Shown here piece after piece: positions 1-64,000 of a stretch of DNA of 64,000 nt. Position 1 is the stretch's first letter, and the number at the start of each line of letters is the position of its first letter. A model generated the notes under the pieces. It was not told the DNA's origin and made no database searches. It saw only the letters and a program-made list of their open reading frames with translations. Source of the stretch: Clostridia bacterium (GTDB lineage Bacteria; Bacillota; Clostridia; Oscillospirales; CAG-272); NCBI GenBank assembly GCA_017483195.1, contig JAFULR010000016.1:73310-137309 (forward strand), read 5' to 3'. The position numbers and the translations under genes are program-made.

Positions 1-1826
1 GGCAGGAGCAGATGATAAAGGCGATATACCGAGGAATAGTCAAGGAGAAGAACGTTTTTGTTCAGGCTCCAACGGGTATCGGAAAGACTATATCGTCCCT
101 TTATCCCGCCGTTCGCGCACTCAGTGAGGGCAAGATAGATAAGATTTTCTATCTTACCGCAAAGGCTCAGACAAGGCGCGAGGCATGGGGAGCTATGAAA
201 AAGCTTCACGCTGCCGGCGCAAGGCTTAAAACCATATTTATAAGCGCGAAGGATTCGGTGTGTGTATGCCCTAAAAAGACCGCGAGCGGACTTGGTGCAA
301 GCAATTTCTGCAATTCCTTTGATTGCGAATTTGCGCGTGGCTATTACGATAGGGTAAACGATGCCATTCGCGAGCTGGTTGAAGGATATTCCGGCTACAC
401 GCAATCACTTATTTTGAGTGTTGCTCAGAGGTATAGAGTGTGCCCGTATGAGCTTTCCCTTGATCTTTCACTTCTTTGCGACGTGGTGATCTGCGATTAT
501 AACTATATTTTCGATCCGATAATATATTTCCAAAGATATTTTGGCGATGAGGGTGAGCGCGGCAGATACGTCTTTCTGGTAGATGAGGCTCACAATCTTC
601 CCGACAGAGCGATAGATATGTATTCCGCATCGCTTTCAAGAAATGAGATTGCCTCGGTTGCGTGCGCTTTGCCGCCTTACGATAGCGAGCTTATTTGCGA
701 GCTTGACGGCTTTATAAGGCTGCTTGACGACTCTAAAGCGCTCTGCTACGATAATATGTTCAAAAATGAAAAGGGTGAGGAAACGGGTTATTATATCAGT
801 AAAAATGCCTATTCCGATATCGAAAAGAGAGTGGAATCCGTCAGCCGCGCCATGAGCGCTTGGATAAGGAAGAATAAGCTTTCCCAAAATCTTTTCGAGG
901 TTAAGGCTCTATACCGTGAGCTTAGTAAATACAAAAAGATAAGCGAGCTTTACGACGAGCATTACGTTTTCTTTATCGAGGTTTCGGGCGGTGACGTTAA
1001 GGTAAGGCTTGCATGTCTCGACCCATCACATCAGCTTGCCGCTTGCCACAAAAGAGCGGTTTCAAGCGTTATGTTTTCTGCGACCCTTGAGCCAATAGAT
1101 TATTTTTCCGACATTCTCGGTGGCGATAAGAGGAGTGTAAGGCTTCAGCTTCCGTCACCGTTTGACCATAAAAATCTTGGAGTGTTTTGCGTTGATGCCG
1201 TTAATACTCGCTTCGAGGAAAGGGAAAAATCCTATAAAAAAATAGCCTCCGCCATAGCTGGAGCAGTAAGCGGCAGGGCGGGGAATTATATCGTTTTCTT
1301 CCCCTCGTATAAGTATATGAGCGAAGTCAAGGCGGAATTTGAAAAGAAATATCCAAAGGTATTTTCCTTTTCTCAGAAGGCGAATATGAGCTATTCCGAA
1401 AAAGAAGAATTCTTGGCTAATTTCAAGGAGGATAACGGAATTCTCAGAGTGGGATTCTGTGTTCTCGGCGGCAGCTTTTCGGAGGGAGTGGATCTTCCGG
1501 GCTCACGTCTTATAGGAACCGTGATCGTTGGCGTGGGACTGCCGGGCATCTCCAACGAACGCAACATTATGAAGGATTATTTTGACAACACCCGTGAAAA
1601 CGGATATGATTACGCATATACCTATCCCGGAATGAACCGCGTGCTTCAGGCTGCGGGTAGAGTTATCAGAACTGAAAATGACAGGGGAATTGTTGTTTTA
1701 CTTGATGACAGATATGCTACGGAGCAGTATAAGGCTATGTTTCCGCTCCATTGGTCGCACGCAAAATACGTCCACAGCGCGCATGAGCTTGCGGGAGCGG
1801 TCAAAAAATTCTGGAGTGAGCAATAA
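1..1826 (+). CDS. DinG/XPD(Rad3)-family ATP-dependent DNA helicase, Fe-S cluster type; N-terminus probably outside the window
   Basis: Walker A QAPTGIGKT and DEAH box (VDEAHNL), with a Cys cluster (CVCP...C...C) between them. C-terminal motif QAAGRVIR. The frame stays open back to nt 3. Confidence 0.8.
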   Translation, partial: QEQMIKAIYRGIVKEKNVFVQAPTGIGKTISSLYPAVRALSEGKIDKIFYLTAKAQTRREAWGAMKKLHAAGARLKTIFISAKDSVCVCPKKTASGLGASNFCNSFDCEFARGYYDRVNDAIRELVEGYSGYTQSLILSVAQRYRVCPYELSLDLSLLCDVVICDYNYIFDPIIYFQRYFGDEGERGRYVFLVDEAHNLPDRAIDMYSASLSRNEIASVACALPPYDSELICELDGFIRLLDDSKALCYDNMFKNEKGEETGYYISKNAYSDIEKRVESVSRAMSAWIRKNKLSQNLFEVKALYRELSKYKKISELYDEHYVFFIEVSGGDVKVRLACLDPSHQLAACHKRAVSSVMFSATLEPIDYFSDILGGDKRSVRLQLPSPFDHKNLGVFCVDAVNTRFEEREKSYKKIASAIAGAVSGRAGNYIVFFPSYKYMSEVKAEFEKKYPKVFSFSQKANMSYSEKEEFLANFKEDNGILRVGFCVLGGSFSEGVDLPGSRLIGTVIVGVGLPGISNERNIMKDYFDNTRENGYDYAYTYPGMNRVLQAAGRVIRTENDRGIVVLLDDRYATEQYKAMFPLHWSHAKYVHSAHELAGAVKKFWSEQ

Positions 1827-5225: not shown

Positions 5226-5519
5226 TTCAAATTTTTGATTTATTGGTCACTTTTTTCGAGAAAAAAGTGACCAAAAAAGCTTTAATCAGCTTCGCGGCAA
5301 TACCAATAAAATCTGTACTAACCTGTAGGGACCGGCGTCCCCGACGGTCCATAACGATGAAATAACATCAAATTTCACGGCTACGCACAAACAAAATCCA
5401 ACATTTTTGAACAAAAGTTACTTTGCTTTTGAATTGGACCGTCGGGGACGCCGGTCCCTACAAGGTTACTTCAATTAAAAATGAATTTGTACTAATCCCT
5501 CGCTAAATCCCAATTTATC
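5226..5519 (-). repeat. mosaic dyad-symmetric intergenic repeat (copy D, inverted orientation)
   Basis: Ends are TTCAAATTTTTGATTTATTGG (5226-5246) and TCCCTCGCTAAATCCCAATTTATC (5496-5519), the reverse complements of the ends seen at 13072-13495. Palindrome at 5243-5274. Perfect 27-bp inverted repeat 5324-5350 / 5436-5462. Confidence 0.75.
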
Positions 5520-6778: not shown

Positions 6779-6843
6779 AATTTTTCTCCTATCTGAAATG
6801 TAATTGTTAACTATTTATAAGTAACTTTGAATTAGGTAAGAAG

Positions 6844-7423
6844 GGAACTCCCTCACCGCCTACGGCGGAGCTCCCTCTGCGGAAGGAGCCTCGGTGAGAT
6901 AATCCTCGATTTATCAAATATAGTATTTGAAAAACTATTGTTTGCTACTTTTAACTTTATTGATTTCGGCATCCAAGTACCCGCAAACCCAAGTGAAATC
7001 CTTATCGATTTGCTTATTCGGTATTCTGATTATTTGAATACCTTGTTTATTTATTTCTTCGGTGCGTATTTTATCTTTTTCAATACCCTCTTTTGAATAG
7101 TGTTGATTTCCGTCAATTTCAATAGCAATTTTCAAGCTTGGACAATAGAAATCAACAATGTATTCTCCTATTGCTTTTTGCCTTTGAAATTTCACTTCAT
7201 AATTTTTTAAAAAGTCATACCAAAGGTGTTTTTCTTGCGGTGTAGATCTTTTTCTTAGGTTTTTTGCTAAAACTATGTTTTTTCCATTATAAATTATTGG
7301 CATAATTTTACCTCTGAAAAGTTTTATTAAATTGTTATGTTAAACTTTATGGCTACACAAGAGAGAAGATCTTACCGAGGCTCCTTCCGAGGAGGGAGCT
7401 CCGCGAAGCGGTGAGGGAGTTCC
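6844..7423 (-). mobile_element. TIR-bounded cassette carrying a DUF559 endonuclease gene
   Basis: 6844-6900 and 7369-7423 are ~55-nt imperfect inverted repeats whose outer 16 nt (GGAACTCCCTCACCGC) are identical. They enclose a single ORF. The first 48 nt are identical to 63067-63114. Confidence 0.7.
6935..7303 (-). CDS. DUF559 domain protein (Vsr/restriction-endonuclease-like fold)
   Basis: 122 aa. STPQEKHLW...KFQRQKAIGEYIVDFYCPSLKIAIEIDGNQH...IRIPN matches the conserved DUF559 pattern. RBS GAGGT. Confidence 0.85.
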   Translation of the reverse strand: MPIIYNGKNIVLAKNLRKRSTPQEKHLWYDFLKNYEVKFQRQKAIGEYIVDFYCPSLKIAIEIDGNQHYSKEGIEKDKIRTEEINKQGIQIIRIPNKQIDKDFTWVCGYLDAEINKVKSSKQ

Positions 7424-7445
7424 TACTTGAAGTAAAAGTAACTAT

Positions 7446-7705
7446 AAAAAAATAAAAAGTCCCTGAACCCAAACGGGTTCAAGGACGAATTAGCGTGATA
7501 CCACCTTGCTTCGAGCGAAATGCGTGCATTTTGCTCCTCATTATGCGCTGTAACGGGCGCGCCGTTGCCGCCTACTCTCAAAACGGATTTCGGGACAAAG
7601 CTCCGAGATGTATTCGCGTTATGTTTTCTGCGCCTCTCACCCACCGGCAGCTCTCTGTAGAAAAGGGAAAACGTTACTGCTTCTCTTCATAGCATTAATT
7701 TATTA
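7446..7705 (-). promoter_or_regulatory. T-box riboswitch leader, tyrosine specifier (UAC)
   Basis: Read on the minus strand: K-turn/AGUA region, AG bulge CAGAGAGC and distal loop GGUGGGUGAGAG. Specifier GAA-UAC-A (UAC = 7610-7612), F-box CCGUUAC and T-box AAGGUGGUAUCACG. Terminator at 7459-7486 followed by a U-tract. Confidence 0.88.
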
Positions 7706-7740: not shown

Positions 7741-9052
7741 CGATTTCCGCAAAAAAAGTTTCACCGTTGTGGCTTATCAATCTGACAAATGCCACCTCGG
7801 AGTGAAGGGGCTTCTCACTTTTAACGCAGACCTCAAGAAAATCGGGAGTGTGACCGTATGCCTTTCCGTTTTCAAAGCTTTCAAAAAGGACCCTGTGAGC
7901 GCCGCCTTGCGCCAAAATTCGGTCGAATTCTTCTTTGCGTATGCTCTTTTCAAGGGAGATAAGCTCCGCTGAGCGCATTTTTTTGATCTCCTGAGGTATC
8001 TGTTCTCCCATTTTTGCCGCAGGTGTTCCTTGGCGGGCAGAGAAGGGGAAAACGTGTATCATAAGGAAATTAGCTTTTTTTGCAAATTCAAGTGTTTCAT
8101 TGAAATCCTCGTCGGTTTCACCGGGAAATCCCACAATTATATCGGTGGTGTAACGAACGGCGGGCATAGCTGCGCGAAGTCGCTCCATATTGGCAAGTGC
8201 CTGATCGGCATTGTATTTACGCTTCATATTGCGAAGGGTTTTTGAGCTGCCCGACTGCATTGAAATGTGAAAATGGGGAGCGAGCTTTTTGAGATCTTTA
8301 ATCTTGTTTACGAATTTCTCCGTAAGACAGGAGGGATCGAGCGAGCCGAGACGAATGGTAAAATCGCCCTCTATCGCGTCTATATCGCAAAGAAGATCCG
8401 CGAAGGTGTAGCCGTCAATATCCTTTCCGTAGGATGCGGTCTCGATGCCCGTAAGCACCACCTCGCGACAGCCGTTTTTCACAAAGTGAGTTACCTCGCA
8501 AATTACCTCCTCTGGCACTTTTGAGCGTATTTTTCCTCGTGCGTAAGGGATGATACAATACGTACATTTACTCTCGCAGCCGTCCTCAATTTTGATATAT
8601 GCGCGCGTGCGGTCAAAATGCTTTATCTCCATTTTTTCAAAGCCTGCGGAGTCGATATCGCGCACGAAAATCTCGGTTTTTGCGTTCTTCTCATCGCGTT
8701 CAAAAAGGTCGCAAAGAGCTTCTGCGATAATGAGCTTGTCCGTGTTACCGCAAACGTAGTCAACTCCGGATATAGCCGCAATATTTTGCGGATTTGTCTG
8801 AGCAAGGCAACCCGTAACCAGAATGTATGCCTCTGGATTTCTTGAGATCGCGCGGCGGATAAACTGACGCGCCTTTCGGTCGCTCTCAGCCGTTACGGTG
8901 CAGGTATTTATAATGTATGCATCGCATTCCTCGGTGCTTGGCTTTATTTCAAAGCCCTGAGAAGTGAGACGCTCGGCTATTGCCTCGCTCTCATACTGGT
9001 TAACCTTGCATCCAAGCGTAAGTATGCCGACGCTCTTTCTAAAATCGTTCAT
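7727..9052 (-). CDS. mtaB: tRNA threonylcarbamoyladenosine methylthiotransferase MtaB (radical SAM)
   Basis: 441 aa. N-terminal TLGCKVNQYESEA (MtaB/YqeV type rather than MiaB) and radical-SAM motif CESKCTYCIIP. Confidence 0.82.
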   Translation of the reverse strand: MNDFRKSVGILTLGCKVNQYESEAIAERLTSQGFEIKPSTEECDAYIINTCTVTAESDRKARQFIRRAISRNPEAYILVTGCLAQTNPQNIAAISGVDYVCGNTDKLIIAEALCDLFERDEKNAKTEIFVRDIDSAGFEKMEIKHFDRTRAYIKIEDGCESKCTYCIIPYARGKIRSKVPEEVICEVTHFVKNGCREVVLTGIETASYGKDIDGYTFADLLCDIDAIEGDFTIRLGSLDPSCLTEKFVNKIKDLKKLAPHFHISMQSGSSKTLRNMKRKYNADQALANMERLRAAMPAVRYTTDIIVGFPGETDEDFNETLEFAKKANFLMIHVFPFSARQGTPAAKMGEQIPQEIKKMRSAELISLEKSIRKEEFDRILAQGGAHRVLFESFENGKAYGHTPDFLEVCVKSEKPLHSEVAFVRLISHNGETFFAEIVDNV

Positions 9053-18795: not shown

Positions 18796-19593
18796 ATGCT
18801 ATACACGGTTGACGGCTTGGTTCTGCGCGTTCAGAATCACGGTGAGAATGACAGGCTTATAACCATACTTACCGCAAACGGCAAAATAAGTGCGCTATGT
18901 CACGGTGCGCGCTCCCTAAAGAGCAAGATGGCAAATCTCACTCAGCCCTTTGTTTACGGAAATTTTGAGATAAACAAACGCAGTGGCGCGCTTCCGTGGG
19001 TGAGGGGCGGCTCCACTAATGAGGTGTTTTACGGTCTGCGTGAGGGCGTTGAAAAAATGTTCTTAGCCACTTACGTTTGCGATGTGGCAAGTGAGCTTTC
19101 GGGAGAAGGGGTTGACTGCTCCGAGATATTAAGGCTTGCATTGAACACACTTTACGCTATAATGACGGATTTGCGTCCGCTTTCTCAGATAAAGGCGGCG
19201 TTTGAGCTGCGTGCGGCGGCAATATCCGGATACTGTCCCGACGTTTTGCACTGTGAGGACTGCGGTACGGAAAATTCCGAAAATACATATTTTGACGTTA
19301 TGAACGGCGCGATAGTTTGCTCTGCCTGCCTTGAAAAGCGCGGCGCGGGACTTGGGAAAAAATATTCGTCCGTTTACGATGACGTAAGGGAGAGGAGTGT
19401 TCTTGTTCCTTTAAATCCCGCATCGCTCTCGGCAATAAGATTTGTGCTTTATTCACCGCAAGAGAAGATATACTCGTTTTCACTTTCTAAAGAAGAGGAC
19501 CTTCGGATGTTTGCGCGTGCAGGGGAGGAATATCTGCTCAACCATCTTGGGCACGGCTTTGATTCACTTGATTTGTATTACTCAATGATTTAA
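18796..19593 (+). CDS. recO: DNA repair protein RecO
   Basis: 265 aa. N-terminal OB region and a 4-Cys zinc motif (CEDCG...CSAC). Downstream of era. Confidence 0.88.
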   Translation: MLYTVDGLVLRVQNHGENDRLITILTANGKISALCHGARSLKSKMANLTQPFVYGNFEINKRSGALPWVRGGSTNEVFYGLREGVEKMFLATYVCDVASELSGEGVDCSEILRLALNTLYAIMTDLRPLSQIKAAFELRAAAISGYCPDVLHCEDCGTENSENTYFDVMNGAIVCSACLEKRGAGLGKKYSSVYDDVRERSVLVPLNPASLSAIRFVLYSPQEKIYSFSLSKEEDLRMFARAGEEYLLNHLGHGFDSLDLYYSMI

Positions 19594-36695: not shown

Positions 36696-37451
36696 ATGAG
36701 AAGATACGTTATAGCAGGAAACTGGAAGATGAATTTCACACCCTCCGAGGCAACTGCGTTTATTAATGAGGTAAAGCCCCTTGTTGAGGGCAAGAACAAT
36801 TGCGATATTATCTTTTGCGCTCCCTTCGTAACGATCGGCGCGGCTATGGAAGCGGCAAAGGGCTCAAATATCAAGATCGGCGCACAGAACGTACACTTTG
36901 AGGAAAAGGGCGCGTTCACTGGCGAGATCTCCGCTAAGATGCTTAAGGAGATCGGCGTTGAGTACGTAATCATCGGTCACTCCGAGCGCCGTCAGTATTT
37001 CGGTGAGACGGATCACACCGTAAATCTTCGAACAAAGGCAGCTCTTGCGGCAGGTCTTAAGGTCCTTCTTTGCCTTGGAGAGGTCAAGGAGGAGCGTCTT
37101 GCGGGCATTACTAACGAGGTGGTTGCTATGCAGACAAAGCTTGATCTTGCAGGAATTTCCGCAGAAGAGCTTAAGAACGTTATTATCGCTTACGAGCCCG
37201 TTTGGGCTATCGGTACGGGACTTACGGCAACTCCCGAGCAGGCTGACGAGACCTGCGGAGCTATCCGTGACGTTGTTGCTTCTCTCTATGGCAGAGAGGC
37301 TGCAGAGGGGCTTATCATCCAGTACGGCGGTTCTATGAACGAAAAGAACGCGTCCGAGCTTCTTTCTAAAGCGAACGTTGACGGCGGTCTTATCGGCGGC
37401 GCATCCCTTGTTGCCGAAAAGTTCAACGCAATCGTTGACGCGGCACAGTAA
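36696..37451 (+). CDS. tpiA: triosephosphate isomerase
   Basis: 251 aa. GNWKMN, IIGHSERR and AYEPVWAIGTG motifs. Confidence 0.94.
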   Translation: MRRYVIAGNWKMNFTPSEATAFINEVKPLVEGKNNCDIIFCAPFVTIGAAMEAAKGSNIKIGAQNVHFEEKGAFTGEISAKMLKEIGVEYVIIGHSERRQYFGETDHTVNLRTKAALAAGLKVLLCLGEVKEERLAGITNEVVAMQTKLDLAGISAEELKNVIIAYEPVWAIGTGLTATPEQADETCGAIRDVVASLYGREAAEGLIIQYGGSMNEKNASELLSKANVDGGLIGGASLVAEKFNAIVDAAQ

Positions 37452-37466
37452 TACGAATTTTATCAG

Positions 37467-37496
37467 GTGGGAGCTTTATTCGCTCCCACTTTTTTG
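37467..37496 (+). terminator. intrinsic terminator of tpiA
   Basis: GTGGGAGC-TTTATTC-GCTCCCAC followed by TTTTTT. Confidence 0.85.
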
Positions 37497-37506
37497 ATGA
37501 CTGATC

Positions 37507-37559
37507 TTCAAATTTTTATTTATAGAGGAATACCACTCCCCTATAAATCAAAATTTGAA
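37507..37559. repeat. minimal 53-bp member of the mosaic repeat family (two termini only)
   Basis: TTCAAATTTTTATTTATAGAGGA (37507-37529) and TCCCCTATAAATCAAAATTTGAA (37537-37559) are inverted (21/23) and separated by 7 nt. Confidence 0.75.
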
Positions 37560-37681
37560 ACTTTTTTATTATTTCCCTTGATAATTTTTGCTATTTATGT
37601 TATACTAATATGAATTATTATGTAAAATTGCGCCGATTGTGTCTTGAAGAGGCTTTTCGGCGGCAGAAGGACGGTGAAAAA

Positions 37682-38062
37682 ATGGCAAATTATCGCAGAG
37701 GAAGAATAAACGATGAGGTACAAAGGGAGCTTGCGAGCATTCTCAGAGACGTTAAAGATCCAAGAGTAAGCGGAGCTTTTGTTAGCATTACTGCTGTGGA
37801 CGTTACTCCCGACCTCAAGTTCGCAAAAATATATTACAGCTCACTTATGGGAGACAAAAAGGAGCTTGCAAAAGGACTTCGCGCGGCAAGCGGATTTATT
37901 CGTTCGCAGATAGCACAAAGGCTTAATCTCAGAATCACTCCCGAGCTTACTTTTATACTTGATGACAGTGTTGCACACGGCGCGCACATTTCAAAGCTTC
38001 TCAACAGCATTACGTTTTCCGAAGATTTTGAAGAAAACGAAGAAGAGAACGGTGAAGAATAA
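37682..38062 (+). CDS. rbfA: ribosome-binding factor A
   Basis: RINDEVQRELASIL...ITAVDVTPDLKFAKIYYS is typical RbfA. ATG 37682; the track ORF starts at 37610. Acidic C-terminal tail. Confidence 0.85.
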   Translation: MANYRRGRINDEVQRELASILRDVKDPRVSGAFVSITAVDVTPDLKFAKIYYSSLMGDKKELAKGLRAASGFIRSQIAQRLNLRITPELTFILDDSVAHGAHISKLLNSITFSEDFEENEEENGEE

Positions 38063-61671: not shown

Positions 61672-62982
61672 TTATTGCGATTCGTGGTGTTTTTTGTTGT
61701 ACGGTGGCAGGTGGATGCCATATTCGGAATTAGCGCAAAGAGAGGACTCAATTCTCAATAGGCGGTTGTATTTTGCAACATGTTCACCGCGGCAGGGCGC
61801 GCCTGCTTTGATAAAGGGCGCGTTAAGAGCCACGGCTATATCGCAAAGTGTGGTATCCTCGGTCTCGCCCGAGCGGTGTGAAAGAATGAAGCTATATCCT
61901 GCGTCCCTTGCGATGCTCACAGTTTTCAGCGTTTCACTAAGTGTGCCTATCTGATTTGGCTTGATAAGGATGGCATTTGCTATTCCCATTTCAATTCCGT
62001 CGAACAATCGTGTGGGATTTGTGACAAAGAGGTCATCTCCAACAAGCATTATTTTGTTTCCGAGCCTTGCGGTAAGCTCAGCCCAGCCCTCAAAATCCTC
62101 TTCGGAGAGTCCGTCCTCGATGGAGATTATGGGATATCGCTCGCATAGACCTTCGTAATATGAAACAAGCTCCTCTGCGGTGTATTCGATATTTCGTTTC
62201 ATAGTGCGGTAGAGACCCTCATCAGCTCTGTACCACGCGCTTGAAGCAACGTCAAGGGCAATTTTTACGTCATTTAAGTTATAGGTGCTTCTGCCGATCG
62301 CCTCAACGAGAAGATCAAGTGCCTCCTCGTCATCGTGAAGATCGGGCGCATATCCTCCCTCGTCGCCAACGCCCACCGATAGGCCGCGCTCCTTTAAAAT
62401 GTTGCCGAGATTGTGATATATTTCACTTCCCATTTGCAGAGCGTGTGAAAAGCTCTCCGCACCTACGGGGACGATCATAAATTCCTGGATCTCAACGTTG
62501 TTTGAAGAGTGAGCTCCACCGTTAAGCACGTTGAACATTGGGCAGGGAAGTCTGCGCGCCAAAATTCCTGACAGGTATCTGTAAACGGGAACGTGATAGT
62601 AGTTTGCACTCGCTCTCGCACAGGCGAGGGAAACCGAAAGAGTTGCATTTGCTCCGAGATTTGACTTATTTTCGGTGCCGTCAAGCTCGCAAAGGATCTT
62701 GTCTATCTCTGCCTGATCTGTGGCATACATTCCGCAAAGGGCAGGTGAGATATGCTTGCAAACACTCGATACGGCTTCGTTAACTCCCTTGCCGTGGTAA
62801 CGTTCCTTTTCCGCGTCACGAAGCTCAAGGGCTTCATATTTTCCAACGGATGCTCCGGACGGAGCGGATGCAACTCCCACCGTACCGTCATCAAGCAATA
62901 TTGTTGCCTCCACCGTTGGATTTCCGCGTGAGTCGAGTATCTCACGAGCGCAGCATTTGATTATCTGTGGTTTTATTGACAT
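61672..62982 (-). CDS. eno: enolase (phosphopyruvate hydratase)
   Basis: 436 aa. ILDSRGNPTVE, SIEDGL, LVGDDLFVTNP, IKPNQIGT, SHRSGETED and AKYNRLLRIE are all present. Confidence 0.93.
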   Translation of the reverse strand: MSIKPQIIKCCAREILDSRGNPTVEATILLDDGTVGVASAPSGASVGKYEALELRDAEKERYHGKGVNEAVSSVCKHISPALCGMYATDQAEIDKILCELDGTENKSNLGANATLSVSLACARASANYYHVPVYRYLSGILARRLPCPMFNVLNGGAHSSNNVEIQEFMIVPVGAESFSHALQMGSEIYHNLGNILKERGLSVGVGDEGGYAPDLHDDEEALDLLVEAIGRSTYNLNDVKIALDVASSAWYRADEGLYRTMKRNIEYTAEELVSYYEGLCERYPIISIEDGLSEEDFEGWAELTARLGNKIMLVGDDLFVTNPTRLFDGIEMGIANAILIKPNQIGTLSETLKTVSIARDAGYSFILSHRSGETEDTTLCDIAVALNAPFIKAGAPCRGEHVAKYNRLLRIESSLCANSEYGIHLPPYNKKHHESQ

Positions 62983-63019
62983 ATTTTTTGCTCCTTTTTT
63001 AGATTATGTAATGTGGAAT

Positions 63020-63314
63020 AATTGGGGTTTAGCGGGAAATTAAAAAGTAAGTTTATTTGTGCAACAGGAACTCCCTCACCGCCTACGGCGGAGCTCCCTC
63101 TGCGGAAGGAGCCTATTTAAGATGACCTTTCACAATTAGCTGTACAACTTAAATTGTTTGATGCTATATGGTTTTTAAATACTTTATGGCTACATAAGGA
63201 GGAACATCTTACCGAGGCTCCTTCCGCAGAGGGAGCTGTCATTTTCCTTGGAAAATGACTGAGGGAGTTCCCCTTTTTTAAGAAAACCAACTTTCCAATA
63301 AATCAAGATTTGAA
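63020..63314 (+). repeat. mosaic repeat family member hosting a nested DUF559-type TIR element
   Basis: Left end AATTGGGGTTTAGCGGG (63020-63036) and right end CCAATAAATCAAGATTTGAA (63295-63314), the same termini as copies B and C. The interior is replaced by 63067-63271. Confidence 0.7.
63067..63271 (-). mobile_element. gene-less (MITE-like) derivative of the DUF559 cassette
   Basis: 63067-63114 is identical (48/48) to 6844-6891. The right TIR 63206-63271 matches 7369-7423 apart from one swapped hairpin. The subterminal ACTTTATGGCTACA is shared with 7344-7357. No ORF inside. Confidence 0.75.
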
Positions 63315-63324
63315 ATTTTAATAC

Positions 63325-63359
63325 AAAAAAGCGCATAACAGTACGTAACTATTATGCGC
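63325..63359 (-). terminator. intrinsic terminator of the downstream-most minus-strand gene
   Basis: Minus strand: GCGCATAA...TTATGCGC stem followed by TTTTTT. Confidence 0.75.
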
Positions 63360-63378: not shown

Positions 63379-64000
63379 CTATTTCTTGGAATTTGGATTC
63401 AGCAAATTATAGAGCTTTGGAATTGCGGGAGAAAAATCGCAGTATCTGTCAATGATCTTTCCGAAAAATCCGATAAGCACGGAATTCAAAAACGCGGCTA
63501 TCACCGTGAGTGCGCCGATCATATCGAAACGGAACTCTCCAAGAAGCAAAAGCATCATTGCTATGGATATGGCAAGCATCGATCCGTCGAAAAAGAGCTT
63601 CATTTTGCTAAGATCAATCCCCTTTGACTCCGCCACCTCTTTAACGAAGATCTCATATGCGGACGGTGGAATGTAGGTTCTAAGCATAAGAGCTATTGCA
63701 AATCCCGTGATGAGTGTGCCTATTGCGGCAACGAGTATTCTTGATACGATGCTTACGGGAGTTATCGAAGAAAGCAGAGAGTTAACTATATCGAAGCAGG
63801 CTCCGTAAAAAAGTATGTTACAGATCGTAGCGATAAATTTTCCCTTGAATTTGCCGATCAGTATGCAGCACAGAGTAAGTAAAAAGCCCTGAATTATGTA
63901 TTCGCACACACCAACGGTCAAAAAGCCTATTTTTTCATGCATAATAAAAGCGGGCGCGATGATTGCGGAAAGTCCGAACGCGCTCTTGGAAACGAGGCAG
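63379..64000 (-). CDS. polytopic membrane protein (YczE/DUF6198-like), N-terminus outside the window
   Basis: The reading frame stays open through nt 64000, upstream of the track ATG at 63942. Five or more TM helices. The family assignment is tentative. Confidence 0.6.
   Translation of the reverse strand, partial: CLVSKSAFGLSAIIAPAFIMHEKIGFLTVGVCEYIIQGFLLTLCCILIGKFKGKFIATICNILFYGACFDIVNSLLSSITPVSIVSRILVAAIGTLITGFAIALMLRTYIPPSAYEIFVKEVAESKGIDLSKMKLFFDGSMLAISIAMMLLLLGEFRFDMIGALTVIAAFLNSVLIGFFGKIIDRYCDFSPAIPKLYNLLNPNSKK

Follow-up and report, generated by a model that had tools for sequence, protein, structure and literature searches.

The 205-bp sequence in front of the enolase gene (eno), located at 63067-63271 of the window (the whole 64,000-nucleotide stretch of DNA analyzed here), is quite probably an ORF-less doublet of a REPIN- or MITE-like kind and the partner of DUF559 cassettes, the two forms belonging to one selfish repeat family. 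The original prediction had paired the sequence, as a gene-less copy, with the coding DUF559 cassette in the tyrS leader, in the manner of a transposable element and its MITE. Common membership in one family is borne out by the shared modules, boxes and leader, but the picture of a classical MITE with a transposase and terminal inverted repeats (TIRs) does not hold. Judged by its sequence, the element is a REPIN/BoxC-like structured doublet rather than a classical MITE.

The eno-front element shares end sequences with a DUF559 cassette

The element lies between eno, whose start codon is at 62982 on the minus strand, and an upstream membrane-protein gene that ends at a stop codon at 63379. A distance of 85 nt separates it from the eno start codon, and the terminator of the upstream gene lies just before it. 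G000 denotes the 1.34-Mb genome from which the window comes, other G-numbers denote its relatives, and C-numbers denote contigs.

As predicted, the left 48 nt of the element (63067-63114) are identical at 48/48 positions to the left end of the tyrS-leader cassette (6844-6891; blastn-short against the 1.34-Mb genome, E 4e-21). This identity is not peculiar to the resident cassette, because the left module is also identical at 45/45 positions in another species (G006:C8). The match that had been claimed for the right end stands in part. The terminal 12 nt TGAGGGAGTTCC are common to the element and the cassette, and 63165-63237, which contains ACTTTATGGCTACA and ATCTTACCGAGGCTCCTTCCG, shares 81% identity over 73 nt with the leader upstream of the cassette's DUF559 ORF (7328-7400; 57 nt at 87.7% by blastn-short against the 1.34-Mb genome), but the right spacer hairpin differs, being GTCATTTTCCTTGGAAAATGAC in the element and CCGCGAAGCGG in the cassette. 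The DUF559 ORF is indeed missing from the element, where the ORF list contains only chance ORFs of <=57 aa, and the gap between the two end modules, put at ~90 bp in the original prediction, is 97 nt (63115-63211). The arms of the element form inverted repeats of 33 nt (91%).

The inserted unit probably extends beyond the 205 bp and includes outer arms of ~25-30 nt on both sides (Table 1), giving a total of ~260 bp, since the empty site of the cassette in G015 includes such arms. A AAGTAACTTT-like motif is present 10-20 nt outside nearly all copies. No Rfam 15 family matches the element at the gathering score, and an Rfam E-value search returned only sub-threshold matches to plant miRNA hairpins. 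Plasmid and phage collections contain no match to the element.

Table 1. Features of the eno-front element and of the DUF559 cassette in the tyrS leader, in window coordinates
Feature	Position	Strand	Remarks
Enclosing 'mosaic family' palindromic element, ends AATTGGGGTTTAGCGGG... / ...AATAAATCAAGATTTGAA	63020-63314	.	Doublet at its centre
Left outer arm ATTAAAAAGTAAGTTTATTTGTGCAACA	63039-63066	+	Inverted repeat; probably within the inserted unit
Left terminus GGAAC and pyrimidine 'third' tract GGAACTCCCTCA	63067-63078	+	Identical to cassette; complement of right terminus TGAGGGAGTTCC
Left spacer hairpin CCGCC-TAC-GGCGG	63079-63091	+	Same spacer type in G006, G013 and G015
Left pyrimidine-loop-purine hairpin AGCTCCCTC-TGCG-GAAGGAGCC	63092-63113	+	Mismatch is C.A as read here and T.G in the complementary strand
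AT-rich pseudo-palindromic core	63114-63215	+	Layout conserved in 19 doublets; right half 81% to 7328-7400
Core sub-terminal boxes	63114-63124 and 63205-63217	+	Core layout
Core degenerate left box	63136-63148	+	Core layout
Core centre TTAAATTGTT...	63149-63171	+	Core layout
Core right box ACTTTATGGCTACA	63181-63194	+	Core layout
Right hairpin GGCTCCTTC-CGCA-GAGGGAGCT, purine-strand version, T.G wobble	63216-63237	+	Inverted repeat and module finder
Right spacer hairpin GTCATTTTCC-TT-GGAAAATGAC	63238-63259	+	Differs from the cassette's CCGCGAAGCGG; type recurs in G009; predicted to fold
Right purine 'third' tract and terminus TGAGGGAGTTCC	63260-63271	+	GAGGGAG mirrors the hairpin purine arm; 7/7 canonical purine-motif triplets
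Right outer arm CCTTTTTTAAGAAAACCAACTTTCC	63272-63296	+	Inverted repeat; by analogy with the cassette empty site (G015)
DUF559 cassette, 633 bp	6814-7446	-	Between T-box terminator and tyrS start codon
Cassette arms	6814-6843 and 7424-7446		Bounds from the G015 empty site
Cassette modules	6844-6890 and 7379-7423
DUF559 ORF, 122 aa, same strand as tyrS	6935-7303	-	Pfam PF04480, E 3.7e-25
T-box leader RF00230	7478-7699		Rfam

Architecture of the end modules

The modules follow a common order, i.e., a GGAAC terminus, a 7-nt pyrimidine tract, a spacer hairpin, and a hairpin in which a 4-nt loop joins a pyrimidine arm to a purine arm. On the other strand this order reads as pyrimidine arm, loop, purine arm, spacer hairpin, purine tract and GTTCC-3'. 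The GGAAC end is conserved in doublets from six species. The final purine tract is the mirror of the purine arm, and all 7 positions fit purine-motif triplets (G.G, A.A). The Watson-Crick stem of the module hairpin contains one T.G wobble, which is present in 46 of the 106 unique modules collected from G000 and the fetched loci with a rule-based finder. These 106 modules belong to >10 sequence families, among them GGGAGAG/GAGAGGG, GAAGAGGG/GGGTGTAG and GGAGAAGG/GGATGAGG, and within every family the third tract varies together with the stem. Non-symmetric families such as the first two confirm that the tracts are mirror rather than direct repeats.

The mirror arrangement is also evident from counts over the whole genome. 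G000 has 145 GC-rich pyrimidine/purine hairpins, compared with 49 in the reversed genome. Among the G000 hairpins with a purine arm that is not mirror-symmetric, a perfect third tract in mirror order is found <=80 nt downstream in 39 cases, whereas the wrong arrangements number 5 (direct, downstream), 7 (mirror, upstream) and 2 (direct, upstream); the reversed genome has 0 mirror-order tracts downstream. The spacers share no common sequence and are self-complementary; the folding energy of 89 distinct spacers is -0.33 kcal/nt versus -0.12 kcal/nt for shuffles, and 89% of the spacers lie below their own shuffle mean in folding energy.

Module types A and B differ in the closing pair of the hairpin, which changes from G-C to C-G from one type to the other; the change is compensatory within a module, which argues for local folding and not for pairing between the two ends of an element. 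Different module types (A/B, A/C, etc.) are paired in 15 of 20 doublets, as read by eye from 19 doublets and one 1.5-unit composite. Thus, although structurally equivalent, the two ends frequently do not constitute sequence inverted repeats, and it is for this reason that 'TIR plus transposase' is the wrong picture. These patterns suggest that the modules can fold into a hairpin plus an intrastrand purine-motif triplex on the strand with its 3' end directed out of the element; the support for the triplex is sequence covariation, as ViennaRNA omits triplexes. As single-stranded DNA, the 205-bp unit has a predicted folding energy of -66.4 kcal/mol (z -12.3).

A family of gene-less doublets in the genus

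A total of 19 complete doublets, 185-233 bp in length, were extracted from six congeneric species. Each of them has two inverted end modules around an AT-rich core of ~97 nt, and the cores have a common layout: a sub-terminal box CTCTGTNAGAT, a box GTAGCC(A/G)TATAG, a centre TTCAAATTGTTAGAT..., a box CTTTACGGCTAC, and a sub-terminal box ATCTNACNGAG. The doublets occupy many loci in the six congeners and outnumber the cassettes. Among 41 relatives, the hairpin pattern CTCCCTCNNNNGAAGGAG is restricted to the genus, where it is found in 11 of 23 species including G000. There are 51 matches in G009, 11 in G000, 10 in G017, 8 in G006, 7 in G020 and 5 in G013, and a reversed-pattern control gave 0. 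In a 596-Gb collection, a pattern with 16 specified bases is expected hundreds of times by chance, and the matches listed from a scan of that collection are mostly single chance hits; among the matches listed, the labels are Clostridia/Eubacteriales MAGs from yak, sheep and cattle gut.

The census bears out the expectation that the family extends beyond the two loci of the window, with copies on C1, C6 and C15 and the hairpin pattern in ten congeners. The remaining G000 copies comprise a tandem array located at the ends of C1 and C15 and, on C6, a composite of 500 bp; C1 also has partial copies. The genes that flank the copies differ and are unrelated between loci. Pairwise identity between doublets is mostly 62-85%, which suggests that the doublets within one genome are mostly old. 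The copy in the window shares 77% identity with its best relative, a G009 doublet, and 67-69% with the other G000 doublets, values that contradict the view of it as a private or recent derivative of the resident cassette. Recent expansion is indicated in G009, where many near-identical copies appear to exist, because most of its copies are at contig ends and overlap one another at 97-100%. No target-site duplication flanks GGAAC...GTTCC in the eight copies inspected.

Cassette and doublet differ by one central block

The DUF559 protein of the cassette carries a catalytic-type motif, DF...E-x-DG-x-x-H, that aligns to PDB 3HRL and to I-Bth0305I (3R3P). When the two ends of the cassette were aligned separately with the doublets by local alignment, the left 90 non-coding nucleotides matched the left ~90 nt of the doublet, and the right ~100 nt matched the doublet from position ~98-102 onward. 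Between the aligned halves there are ~6-10 nt in the doublets versus ~390 nt (a 21-nt RBS leader plus the ORF) in the cassette. By these alignments, the cassette is a doublet with an RBS and an ORF at the centre of its core, or the doublet is a cassette minus exactly that unit; they fit loss and gain of the ORF alike.

The cognate DUF559 subfamily (80-86% amino acid identity) is also found in G009, G012, G017 and G020. The cassette resides in the tyrS leader in G000, G009 and G020, and in the valS T-box leader in G012. In the sister species G015, the tyrS leader is a clean empty site that delimits the insert, and the insert includes outer arms of ~25-30 nt with the motif AAGTAACT; like arms flank the 205-bp element. 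The empty tyrS site of G015 shows a possible TAACTA repeat, and TAACTA is also part of the arms of the element. In G002, the tyrS leader is interrupted at the same position by a ~125-bp doublet that lacks the gene and belongs to another module family (stems CTCGCCC/GGGGAGAG). The tyrS T-box leader is thus a target for both forms, the cassette in three species and the gene-less doublet in G002. A deletion remnant is present at the tyrS site on G012:C286, and its end point is unlike that of the remnant at the eno site. A promoter scan found no sigma-70-like site for the DUF559 ORF beyond chance, and the idea that the GTAGCC box acts as a -35 element was dropped on this result.

History and fixation at the eno site

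In G018, G016, G004 and G021, eno is located directly behind the upstream terminator and the element is absent, G018 being without the entire 63011-63327. In G014, the same outer 'mosaic' palindrome is present at the eno site with a different payload of the GTAGGG type. In G015, whose flanks are 91-93% identical, the same enclosing element is found with the same borders, and only 31 nt, GGAACTCCCTCACCGCCTACGGTGGAGCTCC, remain inside. This remnant matches a deletion between 8-nt direct repeats, GGAGCTCC (63090-63097) and GGAGTTCC (63264-63271). Because G015 keeps the remnant at the same spot, the insertion at the eno site is older than the split from this sister species.

The element is present at the eno site in all of 8 metagenomes, which come from several host species and studies, with 0-7 substitutions, and no joint skipping the element (empty allele) was found in them. 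Its presence therefore varies between species and not within the species. Given the G015 remnant and the lack of an empty allele in the 8 metagenomes, the eno-site copy is old, fixed and decaying by deletion; the recent mobility proposed in the original prediction is unsupported at this site, and the insertion or excision heterogeneity it looked to does not appear there. Site-specific precise excision was considered and rejected: the remnant at eno in G015 and the one at tyrS in G012 do not share an end point, so ordinary deletion at palindromes fits better. The promoter scan detected no sigma-70-like promoter facing eno. Metatranscriptome contigs contain fragments of other copies only, and these could be due to DNA carry-over.

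Candidate enzymes and alternative explanations

A perfect module lies <=350 nt from the DUF559 gene at 15 of 20 loci of the relatives, and on both sides of the gene at 11. Across these 20 loci, the module family differs according to the DUF559 subfamily. In G000, G009 and G017, the spacer type of the cassette is found again in the genome's own doublets. Extra gene-less modules were found in 4 of the 5 genomes with the cognate subfamily versus 2 of the 18 without it (P ~0.008, one-sided Fisher's exact test, which ignores phylogeny and is limited by MAG completeness). Doublets occur with no intact cognate DUF559 in G006 (99% complete, 8 modules) and G013 (5 modules). Contig G006:C199 terminates inside a module at the tyrS leader, and MAGs may lose repeat-flanked genes, which bears on the missing cognate genes in these two genomes.

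RAYT was also evaluated as a mobilizer of the doublets. G000 has five RAYT-like genes (NF047646, 66 bits; curated cut-off 80). No triplex module lies within 500 nt of any of the five; instead, every one of them includes an inverted GTAGGG-type repeat pair. From this context, these genes seem to be associated with the genome's other palindromic repeats, and RAYT was rejected as the enzyme that moves the doublets.

DUF559 itself is a possible mobilizer, a role that we put forward tentatively. In such a scheme, the doublets would be the non-autonomous form and would have arisen by loss of the ORF. The Vsr-like DUF559 nuclease would break folded modules in trans, the T.G wobble of the module hairpin being a candidate recognition feature, and the break would then be repaired from another family member, such that doublets are copied or homogenized. 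Repair from a family member would explain the nesting in other palindromes, the mixed module types and the apparent absence of target duplications. DUF559 has a nuclease fold and no known transposase activity, and we know of no PD-(D/E)xK nuclease that performs strand transfer.

The ORF and its RBS form a clean block of ~390 nt at the core centre with both halves intact, and DUF559 resembles the homing nuclease I-Bth0305I. Both observations would also be in keeping with the converse relationship, in which the doublets are primary, BIME/REPIN-like repeats spread by host processes or another enzyme, a homing-type DUF559 ORF has invaded some of their centres, and the 205-bp copy is an uninvaded 'empty allele'. 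The great excess of doublets over cassettes and their persistence without a cognate gene in G006 and G013 point the same way, as do the motifs CACGGCTAC and AAAGTTACTTTG, found both in the core and outer arms and in GTAGGG-type palindromes of this genome (window 5370-5440), and the five RAYT-like genes, which could move palindromic repeats. We nevertheless regard invasion of preexisting doublets as rather unlikely, since several module families each have their own DUF559 subfamily and repeated matched invasions would be required. Moreover, the cassettes in T-box leaders move whole, together with their modules, the empty site of G015 is clean, and the RAYT-like genes, with a GTAGGG pair each, have no triplex module nearby in any of the five cases.

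The location of the element just past a terminator and close upstream of eno, its fixation in 8 metagenome strains, the conservation of module structure while spacers and core drift, and the very stable predicted fold could instead reflect a host function, such as a stabilizer or processing site in the eno 5'-UTR, a barrier after the terminator, or a nucleoid or replication signal, with the likeness to the cassette being secondary. A host function is improbable, however, when in four relatives the element is missing and eno follows the terminator directly, the sister species has deleted most of it, G014 holds an unrelated payload at the same spot, copies elsewhere adjoin unrelated genes, and neither an Rfam match nor a sigma-70-like promoter towards eno was found. 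Chance likeness, or a local segmental duplication of the ends of the tyrS cassette, might be read from the occurrence of the 48-mer at only two loci within the 64-kb window. The E-value of the 48-mer, the additional copies on C1, C6 and C15, the occurrence of the pattern in ten other species and the unrelated flanking genes refute this and leave it with practically no probability.

DUF559 is a very large protein family whose function is not established. To our knowledge, triplex-type repeats of the BoxC/PIT/TM_ECO kind, known since the 1990s, have neither a function nor an associated protein. With doublets and DUF559 cassettes as two forms of one repeat family, DUF559 becomes a candidate, testable protein partner for triplex-type repeats: the same modules and leader occur with and without the DUF559 gene, the subtypes match within a genome, and both forms share the tyrS T-box target. 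Such repeats also account for assembly breaks in these gut Clostridia.

Comparison with known systems

REPINs consist of two inverted REP hairpins, and the RAYT gene is a single-copy gene for an HUH tyrosine transposase that is flanked by its REPs. Like REPINs, the doublets described here are non-coding pairs of inverted hairpin units with a short spacer and many copies; a small gene is flanked by the same units and is far outnumbered by the doublets; and the copies are located after terminators, have no evident target duplication and show matching between repeat subtype and gene within a genome. Unlike the RAYT system, the gene encodes a PD-(D/E)xK (Vsr-like) nuclease and not an HUH Y1 enzyme, the modules are of a triplex-type three-way kind that start with GGAAC and have no 5' GTAG (GTAGCC occurs only in the core boxes), and the RAYT-like genes of the same genome pair with the GTAGGG repeat type. 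With MITEs, the doublets share their short, non-coding and multi-copy nature, ends and sub-terminal sequence in common with a coding element, presence/absence between species, and nested insertions, but they have no transposase and no clear target-site duplication, and their ends are often of different sequence types. The coding partner, a ~120-aa nuclease of the same fold with its own RBS that forms a compact block in conserved sequence, is reminiscent of I-Bth0305I (PDB 3R3P) and the free-standing Vsr-like EDxHD homing genes; in contrast to these, the 205-bp element is gene-less, and the cassettes have structured end modules that homing genes do not need.

The closest structural parallel is with BoxC/PIT/TM_ECO. 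TM_ECO/BoxC is a class II purine-motif triplex repeat that often has one stem mismatch, often occurs as inverted pairs of two subtypes and is tied to local deletions, and the 2015 survey found no mobility gene beside these repeats (Holder et al. 2015, PMC4666352; for BoxC/PIT elements, Hoyne et al. 2000 as cited in PMC4666352). By the coordinates in Table 1 of that survey, TM_ECO motifs 1 and 2 are separated by a 16-nt gap (PMC4666352). The modules have the same class II order, pyrimidine stem, loop and purine stem, with a second purine tract that mirrors the first, and they too are GC-rich, multi-copy repeats of intergenic regions whose numbers vary patchily from one close relative to the next. 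Both groups also have one conserved mismatch in the Watson-Crick stem, frequently form inverted pairs from two unlike subtypes (A and B), and show deletions at palindromic pairs, represented here by the remnants at eno in G015 and at tyrS in G012. The G002 module comes near to the TM_ECO stems with CTCGCCC/GGGGAGAG, including a G.A mismatch. The two groups differ in that the TM_ECO consensus, CCCTCNCCC N3-6 GGGNGAGGG N3 GGGNGAGGG, has stems of 9-10 nt and a second loop of 3 nt, whereas the modules have stems of 7-8 nt (CTCCTTC/GAGGGAG) and, in place of the short loop, a hairpin of 11-40 nt (13-22 nt in the element) that would give a three-way fold. Instead of a 16-nt gap, the module pairs enclose a conserved core of ~97 nt. 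The modules come from uncultured gut Clostridia and are found flanking DUF559 genes, and their triplex is a predicted one.

In the papers searched, DUF559 is mentioned together with inverted repeats only in a table row on predicted inversions and in a fold survey. The only DUF559 gene of E. coli K-12 is ycjD, and a TM_ECO of type 'A mm' is located 165 nt downstream of it on the same strand, a proximity with a chance probability of ~1e-3 by a rough, post hoc estimate (23 motifs in 4.6 Mb). A broader proposal, more speculative than the role of DUF559 as a mobilizer and one we hold doubtful for now, is that DUF559 nucleases and class II triplex/hairpin modules constitute a two-part selfish system parallel to RAYT/REPIN. 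The doublets would then be the equivalent of REPINs, and BoxC/PIT/TM_ECO with ycjD in E. coli would represent the branch of the system in enterobacteria. The folded purine strand would be what the nuclease recognizes, and the conserved stem mismatch, T.G here and G.A in TM_ECO, would echo the mismatch recognition of Vsr.

Module arrays and the eno slot

Upstream of eno, the interval from the preceding gene's terminator to the eno ribosome-binding site forms a slot that holds the gene-less doublet (two inverted modules around an AT-rich core) in the window; it was compared with three other loci (L012, L005 and L008). It is vacant in some congeners, and in others the same outer palindrome is present with differing payloads. 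Where the slot is vacant, the terminator lies only about 45 nt from the eno ATG, and judging from this distance eno may depend on read-through there.

In the tyrS leader of the congener G002, a gene-less doublet of about 125 bp occupies the same insertion point as the DUF559 cassette of the window's genome (G000), and its modules are of a different family from those of G000. G000 also carries a tandem array of at least three doublets, with a period of 237–254 bp and modules of type A on the left and type C on the right. The array breaks the assembly, and the two contig ends that bear it are probably one locus.

Two DUF559 loci, in G020 and G016, carry three modules in the order module–core–module–ORF–module, such that the DUF559 ORF is directly followed, at its 3′ end, by a complete gene-less doublet. 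This arrangement, which occurs in two different module families, suggests insertion or recombination at modules. The ORF-upstream modules of valS and tyrS cassettes in two species (G012 and G020) share the same extra hairpin of ~50 nt, which is inserted where the pyrimidine/purine hairpin has its 4-nt loop; this loop hairpin is absent from the G000 cassette. A second DUF559 gene of G000, with 54% amino acid identity to that of the window, reads through a triplex module at its 3′ end, a second module lying 45 nt beyond, and its 5′ side bears no module.

Coordinates of the features compared
Feature	Sequence (locus)	Position
eno slot	window	63011–63327
Gene-less doublet, tyrS leader	G002:C24 (L072)	about 1820–1950
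Tandem doublet array	G000:C1	98290–98748
Tandem doublet array	G000:C15	99416–99787
Triple-module array	G020:C54 (L031)	147–962
Triple-module array	G016:C9 (L017)	1301–1863
Extra hairpin carrier	G012:C285 (L041)	95–200
Extra hairpin carrier	G020:C54 (L031)	843–905
Second DUF559 gene	G000:C10	16877–17350
RAYT-like paralog 1	G000:C7, outside window	18861–19415
RAYT-like paralog 2	G000:C11, outside window	8138–8638
RAYT-like paralog 3	G000:C7, outside window	273–779
RAYT-like paralog 4	G000:C6, outside window	71780–72301
RAYT-like paralog 5	G000:C14, outside window	37422–37961
Intergenic GTAGGG-type palindrome	window	5324–5462
ycjD	NC_000913.3 (L077)	1351407–1351760
TM_ECO/BoxC motif	NC_000913.3	1351195–1351245

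Comparison with RAYT genes and E. coli triplex repeats

All five RAYT-like (REP-associated tyrosine transposase) paralogs of G000 contain an inverted GTAGGG... palindrome pair within the reading frame, each with its own variant (e.g., GTAGGGGCGCGCTTTGCGCGTCC). Such intragenic rather than flanking repeats are unusual for RAYTs. GTAGGG-type palindromes are also dispersed in intergenic regions of G000, one example being GTAGGGACCGGCGTCCCC.

The sole DUF559 gene of E. coli K-12, ycjD, has a TM_ECO/BoxC intrastrand-triplex motif (CCCTCGCCCC TCT GGGGAGAGGG TTA GGGTGAGGGG) 165 nt downstream on the ycjD coding strand; gene and motif are separated by a stretch that includes a duplicated piece of the gene's 3′ end. 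The stems of the G002 doublet are nearly equal to those of TM_ECO, including the G.A stem mismatch.
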